From contig DATHRW010000270.1 in assembly GCA_035464955.1 (NCBI GenBank), positions 1-37,908 of the forward strand: DNA of 37,908 nt. Direction: 5' to 3'. This document shows positions 11,582 to 37,908 of this stretch, one piece after another. The position numbers and the translations under genes are program-made. Origin of the DNA: Gemmatimonadales bacterium (lineage in GTDB: Bacteria; Gemmatimonadota; Gemmatimonadetes; Gemmatimonadales; GWC2-71-9). Position 1 is the first letter of the stretch. Every line of letters starts with the position of its first letter. Below the pieces are notes generated by a model, which was not told the origin of the DNA, did no database searches, and worked only from the letters and a program-made list of their open reading frames with translations.

Positions 11582-13138
11582 ATGGGATCACCAGCCACCG
11601 CGCCCGCCATGCGGCCCAAGCCGCGCCTGACGTTCTGGCAGATCTGGAACATGAGTTTCGGATTTCTGGGCATCCAATTTGGCTTCGCACTGCAGAACGC
11701 GAACGTGAGCCGGATTTTCGAGACGCTGGGTGCCAGTGTCGAGAGCATTCCGCTCTTATGGATTGCCGCTCCGGTGACCGGGCTCGTGGTTCAGCCCATT
11801 GTGGGCTACTTCAGCGACCGCACCTGGAACCGCCTGGGCCGCCGCCGGCCCTATTTCCTTGGCGGTGCCATCCTCGCCTCGCTGGCCCTCGTCGCCATGC
11901 CGAATTCTCCGGTACTCTGGGTGGCTGCCGGCATGCTCTGGATTATGGACGCCTCCATCAACATCTCCATGGAGCCGTTCCGCGCCTTCGTGGGAGACAA
12001 CCTGCCGTCGGAGCAGCGCACCACCGGGTTCGCGATGCAGAGCTTCTTCATCGGCACCGGTGCCGTGGTAGCGTCCGCGCTGCCCTGGCTGCTCACGACC
12101 CAATTCGGCGTGGCCAACGAGGCGCCCCCGCACATGATTCCCGACTCGGTGCGCCTCTCCTTCTATCTCGGCGCTGCCGTGTTCTTCATTGCGGTGCTGT
12201 GGACGGTCATCAAGTCGAGGGAGTACTCGCCGGAGGAAATGGCCGCTTTCGAGGACAACCAGGAGCGCGAAGGTCAGACCAGAGAAGTACGGACGGCAGA
12301 GGAGTTTGCGCTAAACGGGTCGCGACAGTTGCGCCTGGGGTGGATCCTGCTCATCGTGGGCGCGGCCGTCAGTTTCTGGCTCGCCAGCGCCGCGATCTAT
12401 CAGGTCATGATCCTGTCGGCCGGGATCGGCGTCGCCGGCCTCTTACTCATCATCAGCGGGCTCATGCAGCGCGGTGGCAAGTACGATAGCGGCTTCATCA
12501 CTATCCTGAACGATTTCCAGGACATGCCCCATACCATGAAACAGCTGGCATGGGTGCAGTTCTTCTCGTGGTTCGCCCTCTTCGCCATGTGGATCTACAC
12601 CACCGCGGCGGTTACCAGTCACATCTACGGCACTACCGACACCACCTCGGCACTGTACAATGAAGGAGCCAACTGGGTGGGTGTTGCGTTCGGCGCCTAC
12701 AACGGTGTCGCCGCGGTAGTGGCGTTCGGCATTCCGGTGCTCGCGAAGCACACCAGCCGGAAAATGACCCACGCCATCTGCCTCGTGTGCGGCGCCGTGG
12801 GGCTCGGCTCCATTTTTGTCATCTCAGACCCCCGGTTCCTGCTGGGCTCCATGGTGGGTGTGGGGATTGCCTGGGCGAGCATCCTCTCGATGCCGTACGC
12901 GATCCTGACCGGGTCTCTGCCGCCCTCGAAGATGGGATACTACATGGGCGTCTTCAACTTCTTCATCGTCATTCCCCAGATCGTTGCGGCCGCGATCCTC
13001 GGTTTCGTCGTCGGACGCTTCTTCGGCGGGCACGCTATCTACGCCCTCCTCGTCGGGGGGGTGTCGCTCGTGCTGGCCGCGGCGCTGACGCTCCGCGTTG
13101 AGGATCGCGACGATGTGGCGGCGAAGGTTACGTCATGA
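11582..13138 (+). CDS. MFS/GPH-type sugar transporter (SLC45-like, probable maltose/maltodextrin importer)
   Basis: About 12 predicted TM segments. DRTWNRLGRRRPYFLGG motif typical of the GPH/SLC45 family. Located between malQ and an amylase. Alternative start at 11609. Confidence 0.8.
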   Translation: MGSPATAPAMRPKPRLTFWQIWNMSFGFLGIQFGFALQNANVSRIFETLGASVESIPLLWIAAPVTGLVVQPIVGYFSDRTWNRLGRRRPYFLGGAILASLALVAMPNSPVLWVAAGMLWIMDASINISMEPFRAFVGDNLPSEQRTTGFAMQSFFIGTGAVVASALPWLLTTQFGVANEAPPHMIPDSVRLSFYLGAAVFFIAVLWTVIKSREYSPEEMAAFEDNQEREGQTREVRTAEEFALNGSRQLRLGWILLIVGAAVSFWLASAAIYQVMILSAGIGVAGLLLIISGLMQRGGKYDSGFITILNDFQDMPHTMKQLAWVQFFSWFALFAMWIYTTAAVTSHIYGTTDTTSALYNEGANWVGVAFGAYNGVAAVVAFGIPVLAKHTSRKMTHAICLVCGAVGLGSIFVISDPRFLLGSMVGVGIAWASILSMPYAILTGSLPPSKMGYYMGVFNFFIVIPQIVAAAILGFVVGRFFGGHAIYALLVGGVSLVLAAALTLRVEDRDDVAAKVTS

Positions 13139-31970: not shown

Positions 31971-31993
31971 GGATGCGTCCAGCGTTGGGAGCT

Positions 31994-32100
31994 GCCTGAC
32001 GGGTTCTGTGACCGTGGCGAGCCACCTGGCCCGTCTGCTCACAAATCAACGACTTCCGCCCAGCCAGGCAAGTCCGCCCATTGCACGAAGGGGCCAGGGC
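31994..32100. repeat. Repeat copy A: roughly 105-nt homolog of copy C
   Basis: aatcaacgacttccgc (32044-32059) is identical to 37783-37798. The flanks align with copy C: cgtgcaatgggcgg vs cgtgcagtggccgg, and acgggccaggtggctcgcc vs gcgggccggctggcccgcc (minus-strand reading). It ends with GCCTGAC (31994-32000). Confidence 0.4.
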
Positions 32101-32222
32101 CAGCGCCCGGGCGGGAGGCTCAGGCCGCCGGTTGCCCGAACGTGAGCCACGATCAGCATCACCACCAGTGGAAGGCCGACAACCACCACGGCAGCGGCAA
32201 CCACGACCCTCCTGATCTTCAT
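32046..32222 (-). CDS. Possible 58-aa small membrane ORF (not in ORF track)
   Basis: ATG at 32222 preceded by GGGAGG. N-terminal TM segment in MKIRRVVVAAAVVVVGLPLVVMLIVAHV. The C-terminal third is encoded by repeat copy A, so it may be fortuitous. Confidence 0.25.
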   Translation of the reverse strand: MKIRRVVVAAAVVVVGLPLVVMLIVAHVRATGGLSLPPGRWPWPLRAMGGLAWLGGSR

Positions 32223-32288
32223 CGACCTCCCGCCCTGAGCGGCCGCTGTACGCGTCGCGCGTCATTGGGCGGGCTGGCTCATCCGCTT

Positions 32289-32327
32289 GCTCACAAATCA
32301 GCGACGATTGGGCCGTGTGGGTTGAAC
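32289..32327. repeat. Repeat copy E: partial copy sharing a 17-mer with copy A, followed by a GTTGAAC core-like heptamer
   Basis: gctcacaaatcagcgac (32289-32305) matches gctcacaaatcaacgac (32037-32053) at 16 of 17 positions. GTTGAAC sits at 32321-32327. Confidence 0.4.
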
Positions 32328-32362: not shown

Positions 32363-34660
32363 TCACGGCAGCGTCGCGCTCGACCTCTGGGCCTCGATCT
32401 CCTGACCGCCCTGGTGAATCACCAGGGCGGTGGTGTTGCCGCCGGCATCCGTCCGGAACGTGATCTGCACGGCCGCTTCGGTGAGATAGAATTCGGTCTC
32501 GGATGTCGGCCACAGCTGGACCCTGTCCTGTCCGGTCGGCTGCGCCCAGAGCGTGGTGTCTTCCCGCGTGATGACCAGCTCGCCGAGCCCCGGAACCTGG
32601 TACGTCCCCACGTGCCGATCCAGCACGGCCTGGCTCAGGTGCACCGGCTTCGGCTGCGGCCAGACGTTGTCGCGGGGGTTGCGGTCCGGAAAGCGCTTGT
32701 GGGGATCGAGCGTGATCTTCGCGATCTGCCGCCCGCCAAACTCGAGGTCCGCGTCGAAGGTGCGGCCGCCGTTGAACCAGACGTCCACCGGGAAGGTGAC
32801 CAGAGCGGTTGTCGAATCGGTCATCACGCTGTTTGTCATGGCGACGATGGCCGGTCCGGTGGGCTCAAATTCCACCTGGAGCACGACCGGCGACGGCATC
32901 TCGCCGTCCTGCCGAACCGTCACCACGGTGTGCGGCCCTTGGGTCGTCACCTTCTGAAGCGAGGCGTCGACCGACTCGGTCGTCCACAGCCAGTAATACC
33001 AGAACCAGCCTAGATCCTGGTGCAGCGCGGTGTTCATGAAGAACGCGTAGTCCCAGGGCGTGGGGTGCTTGAAGCGCCAGGCATGGGCGTAGGCGCTGTG
33101 CGCCCGCCAGACGGCGCTGTCGCCGACGATGCCGCCCAGCATGGACAGCATCATGGGCGCCTTGCCGTAGGCCACGAACCCGTACATCGGACCGGCGTAG
33201 TTCTCATCCCACATGAGCGGCGGCTCCTGCTCGTTGCCGCTCATCTGGCCGTACGACTGCCCCGGCCCGTCGAGCCCGGCGTCCGGTGCGCGGTGGTTGC
33301 GATCGTTGGAAGACAGGATGTTCATGTACTGATTGAACCCTTCGTCCATGAATCCCCACCACGTCTCGTTCACCCCCACCATCATCGGCCACCACTCGTG
33401 GCCGACCTCGTGATCCGCCGCGCCCAGCGCCGACATGATGAACATGGGATACTCCATGCCCAGCTCGGGGCCGTCAGCGACCGTCAATTGCGGGAAGGCA
33501 TAGGGCATCCAGAGTTGCGAGTAGAACTCCAAGGCATGGCGCACCCGTTCCCCAACCTGATCGAAATGATGAGGCGCCGCTTCGTGGCCGGGCAGGTAGA
33601 GGATGTGGACCGGGATGTAGCCCTTGCCTGGGATGTTGGCTCGCGTGGCGTCCCAGGCGTAGCTCTTGGACGTGGCCCAGGCCACGTCGGCTACGCTATC
33701 GGCGACGAAATGCCACCTGAGGCGAGTGCCCGGGGCGGTGGATCTTCCGGGCCCCAGACTGTCGGGATCGACAACATGAATCTGGTTATCGGACTCCAAC
33801 ACCGTGGCGAGACGGGCGCGCTCGGCCTCGGTCAGCACTTCGTCGGGATTCTGTAATACACCGGTCGCCCCCACGATCCAGCCCGCAGGCACCTCGTACG
33901 TCACGTCGAAGTGTCCGAAATTGTTGTAGAACTCAGCACTGCCCAGATAGGGATCCGTGTCCCAGCCCTTGTAGTCGTCGTACACGGCCACTCGCGGGTA
34001 CCATTGCGCGACCTGGTACACCGTATCGGCCGAGCGGCCCATGCGCAGGCCGCGCCCCGACGGAATCAGCGGCACCTGAAACTGCCACTCGATGTCCAAT
34101 GTGGCAGAGCCGTGAGCGGCGACCGGTGTGCTCAACCGTACCCGGGCGCTGGTCGTATTGAAGTTGTGCGCCGTCGGCTCCGTCGGCGGTCCCGATGGAC
34201 GGCGAAACCCGCCTTCGCCGCGCGCGGCCGGCGTCGTCAAGTCGATGGTCTGACCGTCAATGGTCAGGCTGGTGACGTTCATGCCGCTGGTGATTTCGGA
34301 CACCGACCTGTTGCGCGGCGAGTTCTGTGCAAAGATGTTCTGGTCGAGGCGGAAGTAGATGTCCCGCATGGCCTCCGGGCTGTTGTTGTGCAGCACAATG
34401 GTCTCTCTGCCCGTCACGATGGAGGTGGCCGGGTCGAGGCTCGCATGGATCCTGTAATCCACCGACGTCTGCCAGTAGTTGGGCCCGGGCCGACCGGTCG
34501 AGTCGCGCGTGCCCGCTTGATGCGCGCGCTGGATCATGTTGGTGATGGGAATGGTGCGGCGAATCGCGCGGGGCGGCTGCTGGCCGAACGCCTGGTCCGT
34601 CCAATTGGGAGCGAGCAGCCCGGCGGTGGCGAGAATCAGGAGAGTGCGTTGCATGGTCAT
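32363..34660 (-). CDS. Secreted M1-family (gluzincin) zinc metallopeptidase
   Basis: Signal MTMQRTLLILATAGLLAP. Zinc motif HEVGHEWW plus downstream FMDEGFNQY (HExxH-18-E). Confidence 0.85.
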   Translation of the reverse strand: MTMQRTLLILATAGLLAPNWTDQAFGQQPPRAIRRTIPITNMIQRAHQAGTRDSTGRPGPNYWQTSVDYRIHASLDPATSIVTGRETIVLHNNSPEAMRDIYFRLDQNIFAQNSPRNRSVSEITSGMNVTSLTIDGQTIDLTTPAARGEGGFRRPSGPPTEPTAHNFNTTSARVRLSTPVAAHGSATLDIEWQFQVPLIPSGRGLRMGRSADTVYQVAQWYPRVAVYDDYKGWDTDPYLGSAEFYNNFGHFDVTYEVPAGWIVGATGVLQNPDEVLTEAERARLATVLESDNQIHVVDPDSLGPGRSTAPGTRLRWHFVADSVADVAWATSKSYAWDATRANIPGKGYIPVHILYLPGHEAAPHHFDQVGERVRHALEFYSQLWMPYAFPQLTVADGPELGMEYPMFIMSALGAADHEVGHEWWPMMVGVNETWWGFMDEGFNQYMNILSSNDRNHRAPDAGLDGPGQSYGQMSGNEQEPPLMWDENYAGPMYGFVAYGKAPMMLSMLGGIVGDSAVWRAHSAYAHAWRFKHPTPWDYAFFMNTALHQDLGWFWYYWLWTTESVDASLQKVTTQGPHTVVTVRQDGEMPSPVVLQVEFEPTGPAIVAMTNSVMTDSTTALVTFPVDVWFNGGRTFDADLEFGGRQIAKITLDPHKRFPDRNPRDNVWPQPKPVHLSQAVLDRHVGTYQVPGLGELVITREDTTLWAQPTGQDRVQLWPTSETEFYLTEAAVQITFRTDAGGNTTALVIHQGGQEIEAQRSSATLP

Positions 34661-34671
34661 AGCCCGGTGGG

Positions 34672-34816
34672 AGTCACAGTGGTCGACCGACGTCCGGCTT
34701 GAGATATCACATCAGGACGTCTTCGGCGAGGCGTCGGTTTCAGCATCTCATCACAACGACAAAGCTGACCACCGCGATCCGAATTGCGGGGACGGGGCCT
34801 GCCTCGGGCTGTGACT
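34672..34816. repeat. Repeat copy D: 145-nt intergenic element bracketed by an 8-bp perfect inverted repeat
   Basis: AGTCACAG (34672-34679) pairs with CTGTGACT (34809-34816, overlapping the DUF885 stop codon). There is an internal 7-bp stem GACGTCC (34689-34695) / GGACGTC (34715-34721). The core ctcatcacaacgac (34747-34760) is related to the family core. Confidence 0.35.
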
Positions 34817-36662
34817 AGCGAGCCTCGCTTCGGAGGTACTCGTCGATGTTCCTGGCGAGCACGTCGAGCGGCACGTTGCCGCCGCGCACCACGGCATCGT
34901 CGAACGCCTTGAGGTCGAACGTCGCGCCGAGCGACGCCCTGGCCCGCTCGCGCTGGCGATTGATCTCGCTGTGGCCCACCTTGTAGCCGCAGGCCTGTCC
35001 CGGCCACGAGCAATACCGGTCCACCTCGCTGGCGACCTCTTCCGGGTTCGACCCGTTCACGTCCACGAAGTACCTGACGGCCTGCTCGCGGGTCCAGCGC
35101 TTCGCGTGAATGCCCGTGTCCACTACCAACCGGCAGGCTCGGAAGGCGATCGATTGCAGGTAGCCGAGGCGCCCGACGGGATCGTCGTCGTAGGCGCCGA
35201 GTTCATCGGCGAGCTGCTCGGCGTAGAGCGCCCAGCCTTCCGAGTAAGCGTTGAACGCGAGCATCTGACGGATGAGCGGCATCGCGTGGGTGTACTCGCC
35301 TTGCCAGATGTGACCGGGAATCGCCTCGTGGAAGGTCAAGTCCGCCAGGCTGTACTTGCTGTGCAGGGCAGTGGTCCTGAGGTTGATCCAGAATCGGCCG
35401 GGGATCGTTCCGTCGATCGACCCCGCGCCGCCGTACGCACCCGGAGCGCCCGGCTCTTCCTCGGGCGGCAGCCGCTTCACCTCCATGTGTGGATCGACCA
35501 CCGTGTCGAATGCGCGCGGCATCTGGGCCTCGATCCAGTCGAGCCGCTCCTCGATGAAGGCCATGATTTCGGCGCGGCCCTCGTCGCCTTCGGCGAACTG
35601 GTAGCGGGGATCCGTCGCCAGGCCCTTCATCCGTTCGCCCACGGAGCCCTGCGAGTAGCCGACGTGCTTCAGGAGCGTGTCCATCTGCGCGTGCAGGCGC
35701 TCGAGCTCGCTCTGGCCCAGCCGATGGACCTCGTCCGGTGACATGGAGGTGGTGGTCGAGGCCTTGAGCGCCCAGCGGTAGAAGTCCTCGCCGTGGGGCC
35801 GCGCCGCGATGCCGGCGTCGGTCGTCGCTACCGCGCGCTGTGTCTCGAGTTCGCGGATCTGCCGATCGAGCGCCGGCGCCACCTCCTGCACGGCGATCGT
35901 CCGCGCCCGGGCGGCCCAGTCCTCTGGAATGTCCTTCGACCGTCGCTTGATCGACTCGACGAGGATCCCGCCGTCGCGTGCGTTCGTCGCGGAGAGGCTC
36001 ATCTGCCGGACCGCCTTGTCGATCAGGAATGCCGGCGGGACGAGCCCCTGTTCACGCGCCGTCTGGATGCGACTCAGTTCGCCGTCCAGCTGCTTCGCGT
36101 ACGACTGCAGGCGCGCGAGATACGCCTCGGCGTCGGCGGCGCTCTCGATCCGATGATCGCTATCGAGGAACCGGGGGATGTCGAGATAGGCGCCGACATT
36201 CTGGATCACGACGTACGGCGTGTTGCGCCAGCCTCCGACGGTGATGTCGCCGTAGGGGAGCGCGAAGCCTTTGAGTGACGTCGCGTAAGCACTCCGCACC
36301 ACCTCGAAGCTGGTGCGCGTTGCGTATGACAGGGCGCTCGCGTCGAAGGCATTGAGTCGGGCCAGGTCTGTTCGGAGCCGTTCCGCGATCCGCTGCTGGC
36401 CGGCCGCGGACCGATCGGCCAGTTGGGAGCGGAGGGCGGCCCTCGCCCCGGTATCGATGCCGAGCGAGGTTGCCTGCTCCGGGACCAGGCGCAGGAGATT
36501 GTCCGCCACCTCGTCGAGCAGTGCCTGGGCGTCGACGTCGTTGGGCGTGGTCGGCCGCGCCGCGCCGCCACGGCTCATTGCGGGGATGAGTGGGATGGCG
36601 GCTACCGCGGATCCCAGGGCTGCGAGGACCTCTCGGCGGGTGAGGAATCGTCGGTGGGTCAT
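34815..36662 (-). CDS. DUF885-family protein (metallopeptidase-like), TAT-exported
   Basis: The ATG at 36662 gives the twin-arginine leader MTHRRFLTRREVLAALGSAVAAIPLI. DUF885 hallmark HEAIPGHIWQ. Length 615 aa. Confidence 0.8.
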   Translation of the reverse strand: MTHRRFLTRREVLAALGSAVAAIPLIPAMSRGGAARPTTPNDVDAQALLDEVADNLLRLVPEQATSLGIDTGARAALRSQLADRSAAGQQRIAERLRTDLARLNAFDASALSYATRTSFEVVRSAYATSLKGFALPYGDITVGGWRNTPYVVIQNVGAYLDIPRFLDSDHRIESAADAEAYLARLQSYAKQLDGELSRIQTAREQGLVPPAFLIDKAVRQMSLSATNARDGGILVESIKRRSKDIPEDWAARARTIAVQEVAPALDRQIRELETQRAVATTDAGIAARPHGEDFYRWALKASTTTSMSPDEVHRLGQSELERLHAQMDTLLKHVGYSQGSVGERMKGLATDPRYQFAEGDEGRAEIMAFIEERLDWIEAQMPRAFDTVVDPHMEVKRLPPEEEPGAPGAYGGAGSIDGTIPGRFWINLRTTALHSKYSLADLTFHEAIPGHIWQGEYTHAMPLIRQMLAFNAYSEGWALYAEQLADELGAYDDDPVGRLGYLQSIAFRACRLVVDTGIHAKRWTREQAVRYFVDVNGSNPEEVASEVDRYCSWPGQACGYKVGHSEINRQRERARASLGATFDLKAFDDAVVRGGNVPLDVLARNIDEYLRSEAR

Positions 36663-37028
36663 TGGCCACGGCTCCGGGTGAGAGACTCCCGATCGCATCT
36701 CGAATTCGATGCTGACGATTCGGCGGTGGATGGTAGGAGAAGGTCCGAGCGGAACCGTCCGAGGTCAAGGGGAGCCGCCGCCGCACCGGTCACGCAGCCC
36801 GTCGCGCATGTAGGCTGGTTTCTGGCGACGACTGAAGAAGCCAACGAAGACGAGCGTGACCACAATCTGCGCAAGAATGATCAACGCAATGAGCGTAGGC
36901 CGGTTCGCGAGCGCAGACTCAGGCACCGTGACCTGAGGCGATAGCAGGGATAGGTTGGCGACGTTGAACAGGACGATGAGTGTAAGAAGTGCCCTGCCGC
37001 CCTGGTAGACCCGCCCGCCTGTGCACTA

Positions 37029-37088
37029 AACAACGACTTCCATCAGACTGGTAAGGCCCGGGCCACTGCACGCGGTGGTTAGGCTGCC
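37029..37088. repeat. Repeat copy B: half-copy homologous to the right half of copy C, ending in GTTAGGCTGCC
   Basis: caacgacttcc (37031-37041) and ccactgcacgcgg (37063-37075) are identical to 37787-37797 and 37818-37830. It ends with GTTAGGC (37078-37084), abutting the mazF stop codon. Confidence 0.5.
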
Positions 37089-37421
37089 TTACGCTGCAAA
37101 CATCTCCTGCAGCACCGCGAGCGATTGGGTGACGGCCTTGGATGAAAGCTTGCCAAGGCGCCGGACCAGGCGACGAGTGTCGACGGTCCGGAGCTGGTCC
37201 AGCACGACAACGCCCGACCGCTTCTGAAAGCGACAGGGCACTCGAAATGGGTAGGGATGGCGGCCGGTCGTCATCGGGGCGACAATCACCGTCGTCAGGT
37301 GTTCGTTGAGTTCATTGGGCGATACGATCACGCACGGTCGTGTCTTCTTGATCTCGCGCCCGAGCGTTGGGTCGAGCGCGACCAGGAAGACGTCACCGCG
37401 CCGTGGCCATGCGGTCACCAC
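37089..37421 (-). CDS. mazF: MazF/PemK-family type II toxin (mRNA interferase)
   Basis: PRRGDVFLVALDPTLGREIKKTRPCVIVSPNELN...VIVAPMTTG...VVLDQLRTVD is the classic PemK/MazF pattern. The GTG start overlaps the antitoxin stop (GTGGTGA). Confidence 0.85.
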   Translation of the reverse strand: MVTAWPRRGDVFLVALDPTLGREIKKTRPCVIVSPNELNEHLTTVIVAPMTTGRHPYPFRVPCRFQKRSGVVVLDQLRTVDTRRLVRRLGKLSSKAVTQSLAVLQEMFAA

Positions 37422-37663
37422 TGCCAGTCCGTCTTGTCGAACTCAGTCGATACGAGCCCGTCGAGCACGCCCTCTCCCCCTCGTTGCCGAATCTCCTGTG
37501 CTGCTTCAGCCCATCCCGCCCGGGGCGCAGCCGAGGCGGCAAGGAGGATCCCCTCCGGCTCGAGGCGCAACTCGACCTCTTCGCCGAGTCCGGCCTGTTC
37601 CAGGAGGGGTTTCGGGATCCGGATACCCTGCGAGTTTCCGATACGGACGATGCGAGTTTTCAC
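37415..37663 (-). CDS. mazE: AbrB/MazE/SpoVT-type antitoxin
   Basis: MKTRIVRIGNSQGIRIPKPLLEQAGL is a swapped-hairpin AbrB-type DNA-binding N-terminus. GGAGG Shine-Dalgarno 8 nt upstream of the GTG. 7-nt overlap with the toxin gene. Confidence 0.8.
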   Translation of the reverse strand: MKTRIVRIGNSQGIRIPKPLLEQAGLGEEVELRLEPEGILLAASAAPRAGWAEAAQEIRQRGGEGVLDGLVSTEFDKTDWQW

Positions 37664-37669
37664 GGGTGA

Positions 37670-37710
37670 GCCTCCGCAATGGTAACCACAATGTAATTAC
37701 CTGCGGAGGC
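37670..37710. promoter_or_regulatory. Probable MazE/MazEF operator: 9-bp perfect inverted repeat spanning the -10 region and the Shine-Dalgarno
   Basis: gcctccgca (37670-37678) and tgcggaggc (37702-37710) are exact reverse complements. A nested near-palindrome ggtaac..attacc lies between them. Confidence 0.4.
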
Positions 37711-37718
37711 GTGTGCAA
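37690..37718 (-). promoter_or_regulatory. Sigma-70-like promoter for mazEF (TTGCAC - 17 nt - TACATT on the minus strand)
   Basis: The -35 TTGCAC is the reverse complement of 37713-37718. The -10 TACATT is the reverse complement of 37690-37695, with exact 17-nt spacing. It lies in a locally AT-rich island about 30 nt upstream of the antitoxin start. Confidence 0.4.
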
Positions 37719-37733
37719 GTAGGTGGAAGGGCA

Positions 37734-37839
37734 GCCTAACGAATTCCGCGTCAGCGGCGGGCCAGCCGGCCCGCCTCAGGCCAATCAACGACTTCCGCTG
37801 AAACCGCAAGGGCCCGGCCACTGCACGCGGCTGTAAGGC
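37734..37839. repeat. Repeat copy C: 106-nt imperfect palindrome with attC-like architecture
   Basis: The ends are GCCTAAC and GTAAGGC. The 18-nt arm (37746-37763) pairs with the 20-nt arm (37811-37830) with one mismatch and two bulged bases. It shares a 16-mer with copy A and about 50 nt with copy B. Confidence 0.5.
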
Positions 37840-37908
37840 AGCGCCGCACCTTATCTAGTGTGACACACCAGGTGTCTGATGAAGGTACGTGTCGTCAACA
37901 AGTTGCTT

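Follow-up and report, generated by a model that had tools for sequence, protein, structure and literature searches.

The 37,908-nt stretch of DNA analysed here (contig DATHRW010000270.1 of assembly GCA_035464955.1, from a Gemmatimonadales bacterium; hereafter the window) carries at positions 37734-37839, in a surrounding of about 70% G+C, an imperfect palindrome that is very probably an integron attC recombination site, one of a lineage-specific and homogeneous family of such sites in sedentary chromosomal integrons of Gemmatimonadales. We call this element site D. The family to which D belongs is organised in arrays, is linked in relatives to an integron integrase gene (intI), has a stem whose paired positions covary, and meets the boundaries of gene cassettes at its core sequences; together with the cores themselves and two bulged bases, these observations uphold the attC architecture that had been proposed for the element in a first-pass annotation made from the letters alone.

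Read 5' to 3' on the + strand, D starts with the heptamer GCCTAAC (R', 37734-37740), followed by an unpaired spacer GAATT (37741-37745), an 18-nt 5' arm (37746-37763), a variable terminal region of about 47 nt (37764-37810) that holds a local hairpin and the motif AATCAACGACTTCC, a 20-nt 3' arm (37811-37830) with extrahelical bases at C37824 and G37816/37817, a short spacer CT (37831-37832), and the closing heptamer GTAAGGC (R'', 37833-37839). This delimitation, for which the sequence, folds and the covariance model described below were used, agrees with the first-pass annotation in every coordinate and part. When the long arms were paired by hand, we counted 17 pairs where 16 had been claimed; the single mismatch (C.A) and the two bulged bases, both on the 3' arm, stand, and so do the 6 of 7 paired positions of the terminal heptamers. 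In D, the AAC triplet and the two bulges have been kept, as have 17 of the 18 arm pairs. The departure of GTAAGGC from GTTRRRY, which had also been pointed out, is real for D but is a private T-to-A change, the family consensus at this place being the canonical GTTAGGC.

The family was recognised with a 20-nt pattern, CAACGACTTCC-N15-26-CCAYTGCACG, which matches three times in the window and never in 100 shuffles of it. Across 185,579 species, each represented by one genome, multi-copy loci were found only in Gemmatimonadales metagenome-assembled genomes (MAGs); single matches elsewhere fell mostly in Bifidobacterium and Pseudomonas, and there were also several single-copy loci in Gemmatimonadales or other Gemmatimonadota. 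The contig CAWFGG010000009.1 holds 12 exact matches over 14 kb, all on one strand, and further clusters lie at the ends of CAVOGR010000008.1 (10 matches), CAVOGR010000007.1 (6) and CAVOGR010000010.1 (7). In the two large MAGs, 35 of the 37 exact-pattern matches sit in one-orientation arrays, with 10 to 17 or more same-strand sites per contig and units of 295-1980 bp. Copies of the element are clustered in this manner and not scattered genome-wide, the pattern that the first-pass annotation had named as speaking for a generic repeat.

A covariance model, R1, was built from 43 aligned copies from outside the window. Scanned over the window with the filters off, it matched D at 37725-37849 with 96.6 bits (E 5.5e-29). 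As a control, R1 was run on 39 non-Gemmatimonadota loci that share the search pattern (294 kb) and matched only once, with 50 bits, a short contig assigned to Anaerolineales by binning. The family has more than 70 known members, 71 sites having been found at E<1e-8. Among them is a 16-kb array in CAWFGG010000009.1 with at least 17 sites, which ends about 400 nt from a tRNA-Pro gene (L030 2241-2854).

The family consensus reads GCCTAAC GAATC CCGCGTCAGTGGCGGGCC ... AATCAACGACTTCC ... GGCCCGGCCACTGCACGCGG TG GTTAGGC. Conservation begins at (Y)CTAAC and ends at GTTAG(R), and the termini are the canonical RYYYAAC and GTTRRRY. From core to core the sites measure 106-107 nt, within the attC range of 57-141 bp, and most of the variation is central. 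In the fold of the consensus, an internal loop of 5 and 2 nt separates the 7-bp R box from a stem whose helices of 6, 6-7 and 5-6 bp are interrupted first by a bulged C and then by a bulged G; the top is branched. In the alignment of 71 sites, which was fitted to the model and is thereby biased in favour of the structure, 95.6% of the cells are paired and compensatory changes occur at 17 of 30 pairs, a number that 0 of 500 shuffles reached; controls with slid pairings scored much lower. Compensation is also seen by eye in divergent members, where CCGCGT/ACGCGG has become CCGTGT/ACACGG or GTCCAT/ATGGAC and CAGTGG/CCACTG has become CAGCTG/CAGCTG. The bulged C is kept where both of its flanking helices covary. 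The second bulge, 6 bp from the first, is a G in the main family and a T in a subfamily of units of about 297 bp that lack an open reading frame (ORF). Counted in our own way from the outer end of R'', the bulges are at positions 16 and 23, a count whose origin may differ from that of the published numbering (PMC5027507). In that paper (Nivina et al. 2016), the first extrahelical base of attC sites is placed at 16 (usually G) and the last at 23/24 (T), with a 6-bp stem between them. The geometry of the family, two bulges on the 3' arm 6 bp apart, matches this description, and the identity of the bulged bases differs.

A repeat search within the window returned three same-strand relatives of D, at about 32029, 32281 and 37013, the last of them 755 nt before D and directly after mazF, the toxin gene of a mazEF pair. 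The first-pass annotation had proposed a scan for further copies beyond 37908; past this point, only about 90 nt could be seen, by means of L001, a 1.6-kb ENA contig that is near-identical to the mazEF region of the window and was the sole return of an exact look-up of its MazE. In the R1 scan, all on the + strand, the copy next to mazF (site C, 36971-37094) scored 37.4 bits (E 5e-10), a decayed copy (site A, 31985-32109) 57.7 bits (E 1.6e-16), and a marginal remnant (B, 32271-32315; 69-74% in the repeat search) 11.9 bits (E 0.08); positions 1-31900 gave no credible match. The half of C beside mazF is intact, with a canonical GTTAGGC at 37078-37084. In its other half, R' and the 5' arm have been replaced or have degenerated, which prevents the hairpin from forming, and the fold is accordingly poor (z +1.1 to +1.6). 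Site A has mutated cores (GCCTGAC and GCCAGGG), a partly compensated stem and an intact central motif, and B consists of the central part only.

Along the top (-) strand, an upstream cassette is followed in turn by D, the mazEF cassette, C, a possible 53-aa ORF, a DUF885 gene, an M1-family peptidase gene, B and A, the last two about 5 kb beyond the truncated site C. The DUF885 (627 aa) and peptidase (765 aa) genes, spanning 32363-36698, separate C from B and A. Their G+C content at third codon positions is about 0.85, compared with 0.6-0.76 in the cassette ORFs, and their codon usage looks core-like. Because the cassettes read from right to left and are followed by core-like genes and the remnants B and A, the window holds the integrase-distal, decaying end of a cassette array. 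In a metagenome protein scan, 80 loci with DUF885 orthologues of 74-83% identity were collected from soil Gemmatimonadota (674 kb); family sites were absent from all of them, and none had the neighbouring genes of the window, these loci being too distant to tell presence or absence of cassettes at the window locus at the level of strains.

The cassette that lies between C and D carries a mazE-type antitoxin gene (82 aa, 37415-37663, - strand; PF04014 MazE_antitoxin, E 1.7e-8) and a mazF/PemK-type toxin gene (110 aa, 37089-37421, - strand; PF02452 PemK_toxin, E 1e-29), co-oriented and overlapping by 7 nt, which by their domain matches are predicted to form a type II toxin-antitoxin module, MazEF/PemIK. 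The toxin reached 59 bits with NF007386 MazF, below the cut-off, and all the NCBIfam MazF equivalog models stayed below their cut-offs. The cassette (36985-37739, - strand) starts with TTAGGCTGCCC at 37739 on the top strand and ends in the truncated site C, whose core is 4 nt from the mazF stop codon; its length equals the 755-nt spacing of the repeats. As the first-pass annotation had it, D lies immediately upstream of mazEF (mazE starts at 37663), but the site belongs to the cassette upstream, and the attC of mazEF itself is C. D gives the mazEF cassette only its first six bases (TTAGGC). The cassette to which D does belong is represented in the window by the 3' end of an ORF (37855-37908, - strand; its frame was read by hand from L001) with a TAG stop codon at 37855-37857, 15 nt before D, and the gene continues past the window end. 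Its 46-aa C-terminal fragment had no Pfam or NCBIfam match; a first impression that it encodes an NAD(P)H-binding protein was unconfirmed and was dropped. In the region upstream of mazEF (37668-37733) there is an inverted repeat GGTAACCACAATGTAATTACC, conserved in the copy of the cassette described next, which may be an antitoxin operator.

That copy is found in another Gemmatimonadales MAG (L040). The window from 37053 to 37749, comprising the intact part of C, mazF, mazE and the R' box of D, is 89.6% identical to it, and the homology ends exactly after GCAGCCTAAC, at GCCTAAC, with nothing else in common: beyond this point there is a cupin cassette in L040 and site D plus another gene in the window. 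The cores of the L040 mazEF cassette are mutated, with CAC for AAC and GCT for GTT. Cassette content thus differs between genomes, whereas an invariant gene order would have spoken against an integron according to the first-pass annotation. Two species-level MAGs share a 585-nt cassette with 100% identity (L039 4385-4954 and L004 5586-6155). One side of it runs into a contig end, and on the only comparable side the neighbours are different; this points to either recent exchange or cross-assembly among the samples of one project.

The boundaries of the cassettes carry a further signature. For 46 pairs of adjacent sites we compared the 7-nt flank outside GTTAG of one site with that outside CTAAC of the next and found a mean complementarity of 4.26/7, as opposed to 3.10/7 for random pairs (permutation p<1e-5) and 3.52/7 for the two flanks of the same site (Mann-Whitney p=0.013 against adjacent sites). 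In the window, the flanks at the two ends of the mazEF unit match over 11-12 nt, GTTAGGCTGCC at C being complementary to GGCAGCCTAAC at D. This pairing of a flank with the neighbouring site is what would be expected of crossover at G|TT.

Linkage to an integrase is seen in relatives. On CAVOGR010000007.1, an intI gene (L041 4568-5538; TIGR02249) lies about 400 nt upstream of the first site of an array of at least 10 sites and is co-oriented with the cassettes. Joined from three frames, with two frameshifts repaired, it encodes 320 aa that match TIGR02249 from end to end with 450.6 bits (cut-off 265). Intact 320-aa orthologues with 95-97% identity exist (P0001-P0005), so the frameshifts are probably assembly errors. 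In two relatives a family site lies 0.4-1.1 kb downstream of intI, and at L138 an intact intI is followed by one cassette and then by a family site scoring 103.9 bits with R1. The gene occupies the same chromosomal position at L041, L136, L137 and L138, with DUF4440, SDR, DUF6526 and a 163-aa gene upstream, and a conserved attI-like stretch there ends in ...CATATCTCG|TTAGRC. At L041 the order is intI, attI, array. At L136, the first cassette after the same attI has a textbook attC of about 85 nt (...TT[C]AAGCGG[A]CAGCCGCC..., 12084-12170), whose bulged bottom-strand bases, G and T, are separated by 6 bp, lie on the same arm as in our family and show the same polarity to intI; the integron platform therefore holds cassettes with two or more types of attC.

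Between the intI stop codon and attI, L136 (11015-11478) and L137 (4454-4989) carry a brnT/brnA toxin-antitoxin pair followed by an attC-arm-like fragment, CCACCGCGTGCAGTGGCGGG. This insert is absent from L041, where attI comes directly after intI.

The window itself has no intI, as already stated in the first-pass annotation: tblastn over all 37,908 nt found none, and the window end is the integrase-proximal side. The intI of L137 is 95% identical to the array-linked one, and L137 and L001 both come from the sample ERZ27272641. The shared sample is suggestive of a connection between this integrase and a locus like that of the window, but does not by itself link them.

Judged from the layout of the element, the + strand of the window is probably the bottom, recombinogenic strand, because the 5' arm contains AAC and the two bulges belong to the 3' arm. 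GCCTAAC would then be R' and GTAAGGC a mutated R'', and the cassette genes, on the - strand, would be in the canonical orientation. For bottom-strand attC sites, Nivina et al. 2016 (PMC5027507) give R' as 5'-RYYYAAC-3' and place the extrahelical bases near L'', on the arm opposite AAC. Where a unit is filled by a single ORF, the ORF is mostly on the strand opposite to the + reading, a few being reversed and many short units having no decisive ORF; in the window, the - strand encodes all three of mazE, mazF and the upstream ORF. The orientation of the ORFs and the polarity of the L136 attC agree with the bottom-strand assignment.

If the assignment is right, the single-stranded + strand would fold into an imperfect hairpin in which GCCTAAC pairs with GTTAGGC (GTAAGGC in D) to form a 7-bp R box. 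Beyond the box there would be an asymmetric unpaired spacer of 5 nt on one side and 2 nt on the other, then a stem of about 18 bp in which the arm facing AAC bears two extrahelical bases separated by 6 bp, and a branched terminal region would close the hairpin. The IntI tyrosine recombinase is predicted to bind this fold and to cut between A and C of AAC, which would lead to excision or insertion of a cassette. D may still be a substrate today; the integrase, if present, would be encoded beyond 37908.

Several observations weigh against the attC reading of D. The energy of the single-copy hairpin is within the chance range for DNA of 70% G+C: against dinucleotide shuffles, the 126-nt stretch around D has z values of -0.73 (+ strand) and -1.48 (- strand), and the exact element -1.62 (+) and -2.21 (-). 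In the minimum-free-energy fold of D, a local 8-bp hairpin, GGCGGGCC/GGCCCGCC, replaces the top 5 bp of the long arms. Folding of both strands, proposed as a check in the first-pass annotation, therefore fails to single out D, whereas the family consensus does stand out with z about -3; the significance of D comes from its repetition, that is, from membership in the family, and not from hairpin energy. GTA in place of GTT in R'' creates an A.A mismatch that is one base away from where cleavage is predicted, and there is the C.A mismatch within the stem; with one mismatch in the R box and one in the stem, the activity of D may be reduced. Two features of the whole family are also unusual. The spacers measure 5 nt on the R' side (GAATC/GAATT) and 2 nt on the R'' side (TG/CT), an asymmetry that had been noted for D as a deviation and has turned out to be family-wide, whereas attC spacers are canonically 5-6 nt on each arm, as described in PMC5027507. 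Where G and T are the canonical extrahelical bases, the family has C and G (or T). The array end in the window may be immobile, given the truncation of C and the decay of A and B. Finally, the intI beside the long array at L041 is frameshifted in that assembly, and a complete integron in the source genome is not seen within the window plus about 90 nt.

A rival reading takes D for a fossil attC, a dead, integrase-less remnant fixed beside core genes and at most a passive hairpin or terminator. Clusters of attC sites lacking an integron integrase are known as CALINs, a category of IntegronFinder, and the window would be a decaying one. The mismatches in the R box (GTAAGGC) and the stem of D, the missing R' half of C, the strong decay of A and B, the mutated cores of the L040 mazEF cassette and the lack of intI in the window all fit such a remnant. 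An array of the same family without intI also exists: that of CAWFGG010000009.1 ends at the tRNA-Pro gene, and no integrase was found in the 5 kb beyond this end, meaning that integrase-less clusters occur in the Gemmatimonadales lineage. We nevertheless consider a dead remnant rather unlikely. D still scores 96.6 bits and has kept AAC, both bulges and 17 of 18 arm pairs, the array may extend past the window end, and an intI of 95% identity is present in ERZ27272641, the same sample as the near-identical copy of the locus, so that integrase may be present in trans.

The element could also be conserved for a function in the transcript, as a structured RNA, an intrinsic terminator or a 3'-UTR stabiliser. 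Its constant place on the coding strand a few nucleotides after a stop codon, the covariation of its stem and the persistence of the central motif when other parts have decayed would suit such a role, and it is conceivable as a side effect of the kind known from attC hairpins in mRNA. As the primary explanation it is very unlikely, since it leaves the RYYYAAC/GTTRRRY bounds, the exchange of flanks and the linkage to intI unexplained. An Rfam scan of the whole window gave no match at gathering thresholds (Rfam holds no attC family), and a scan of 36900-37908 for promoters and terminators found neither a sigma-70-like promoter for mazEF nor a terminator, or a T-run signature of one, at the sites.

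Still less probable is a generic intergenic repeat of the REP/BIME or MITE type, spread by a transposase or by recombination and without any tie to integrons. Such repeats, too, are repeated, palindromic and intergenic, as the sites just after stop codons are, and isolated single copies of the family do exist (L052, L053, L031). However, nearly all exact matches of the two large MAGs are in one-orientation arrays, these arrays adjoin intI and attI, and no copies occur in the first 31.9 kb of the window or in the 674 kb of related loci; the pairing of flanks with those of the neighbouring site would not result from insertion of whole units. A chance palindrome in G+C-rich DNA, to which the fold z values of -0.7 to -2.2 within the shuffled range might point, is practically negligible given an E value of 5.5e-29 with a model made from other genomes and more than 70 family members. 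Variable spacing and the ORFs that fill the units led us to reject a CRISPR-like array.

The central motif AATCAACGACTTCC, in general form AATCAA-NNNN-TTCC, occurs in the window at 37789-37802 (D), 32044-32057 (A) and 37028-37041 (C). It is the best-preserved part of decayed copies whose cores are gone, and it recurs in a divergent attC at the end of L137. Part of its conservation was biased by the initial search pattern; in 25 sites that fall outside the pattern, ATCAA and TTCC are kept and the middle varies. The general form resembles the IHF consensus WATCAANNNNTTR except for the last base. It is conceivable, though we consider it improbable, that the family represents a variant recognition mode, characterised by C16/G23, the 5/2-nt spacer and the conserved, double-strand-type, IHF-like motif of the terminal region. 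If the motif were bound by a host factor that aids hairpin extrusion or synapsis, the family would have a host-factor-dependent attC design not described in model systems.

The arrays contain mostly cassettes without a Pfam match, together with an HTH antitoxin-like protein, a cupin, a serine hydrolase and a Gmad2 domain, and several cassettes are duplicated within arrays. The units of about 297 bp mentioned above (L055 2263-2984, L039 3028-3154, L003 1597-1722) have a spacer of about 170 nt without a plausible ORF and an attC subfamily with a compensated stem (CAGCTG palindrome, bulged T), are tandemly duplicated up to three times, and resemble the ORF-less cassettes of other integrons. One unit, running from L036 6417 to L030 248 (CAWFGG010000009.1, about 102.4-104.2 kb), contains an IS110-family transposase (PF01548 + PF02371). 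Its first 681 nt correspond to a HigA-like HTH cassette that is free of the insertion in another MAG (97.7% identity), and the IS110 element is an insertion sequence that landed within the cassette array.

Among known systems, the closest likeness is to the Vibrio cholerae repeats (VCRs) of the superintegron, which are likewise long (about 107-126 nt) and mutually similar attC sites within a lineage, in large same-orientation arrays whose small cassettes mostly have no known function, with toxin-antitoxin cassettes among them and a branched, variable terminal structure. The sequences are unrelated, however, and VCRs have extrahelical G, T and T where two bases (C and G/T) are bulged here; the 5/2-nt spacers, the Gemmatimonadales host and the co-orientation of intI, which is divergent in V. 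cholerae, also differ. Homogeneous attC sites with large branched terminal structures belong to the properties of sedentary integrons given in PMC5027507, and the general properties of sedentary chromosomal integrons correspond to those in PMC8618304 and PMC5027507. In gene arrangement, with intI transcribed toward the cassettes as at L041, L136, L137 and L138, the integrons resemble the atypical co-oriented type described for Treponema (PMC3607928), of which the Treponema denticola integron belongs to another phylum and has another attC sequence family.

With the attC sites of class 1 cassettes such as attC-aadA7, the family shares the RYYYAAC/GTTRRRY cores, the bottom-strand hairpin, a first bulge that, in our own count from the outer end of R'', falls at position 16 and a second one 6 bp further. 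We also take its start, GCCTAAC-GAATYC, to resemble the classical attC core plus spacer. Class 1 sites are otherwise about 60 nt long and very diverse, with a 3-nt loop, G16/T23 bulges and near-symmetric spacers of 5-6 nt, whereas the sites here are 107 nt long, homogeneous and provided with a conserved internal motif. The window is similar to a CALIN in that it contains two or more attC sites, spaced by 755 nt, and lacks intI over the 37.7 kb on the sequenced side, but its array runs off the end on the integrase-proximal side, and it would be a CALIN only if no integrase follows past 37908.

Homogeneous attC families, toxin-antitoxin cassettes, co-oriented integrases, integrase-less clusters and IS110-type insertions are all established in integrons elsewhere. 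Our literature searches returned no description of this Gemmatimonadales attC family. Gemmatimonadota are listed among the phyla with detected integrons (PMC8618304), so the general picture of integron distribution is unchanged. What the present analysis documents is sedentary chromosomal integrons in soil Gemmatimonadales with an attC family of their own, arrays of at least 17 cassettes, a co-oriented integrase and toxin-antitoxin cassettes, and with the R1 model it could become possible to attribute metagenomic cassettes to this lineage. The family also indicates which features of attC are kept outside Proteobacteria, namely the cores, the position of the bulges and their 6-bp spacing, and which are drifting, namely the identity of the bulged bases and the symmetry of the spacers.

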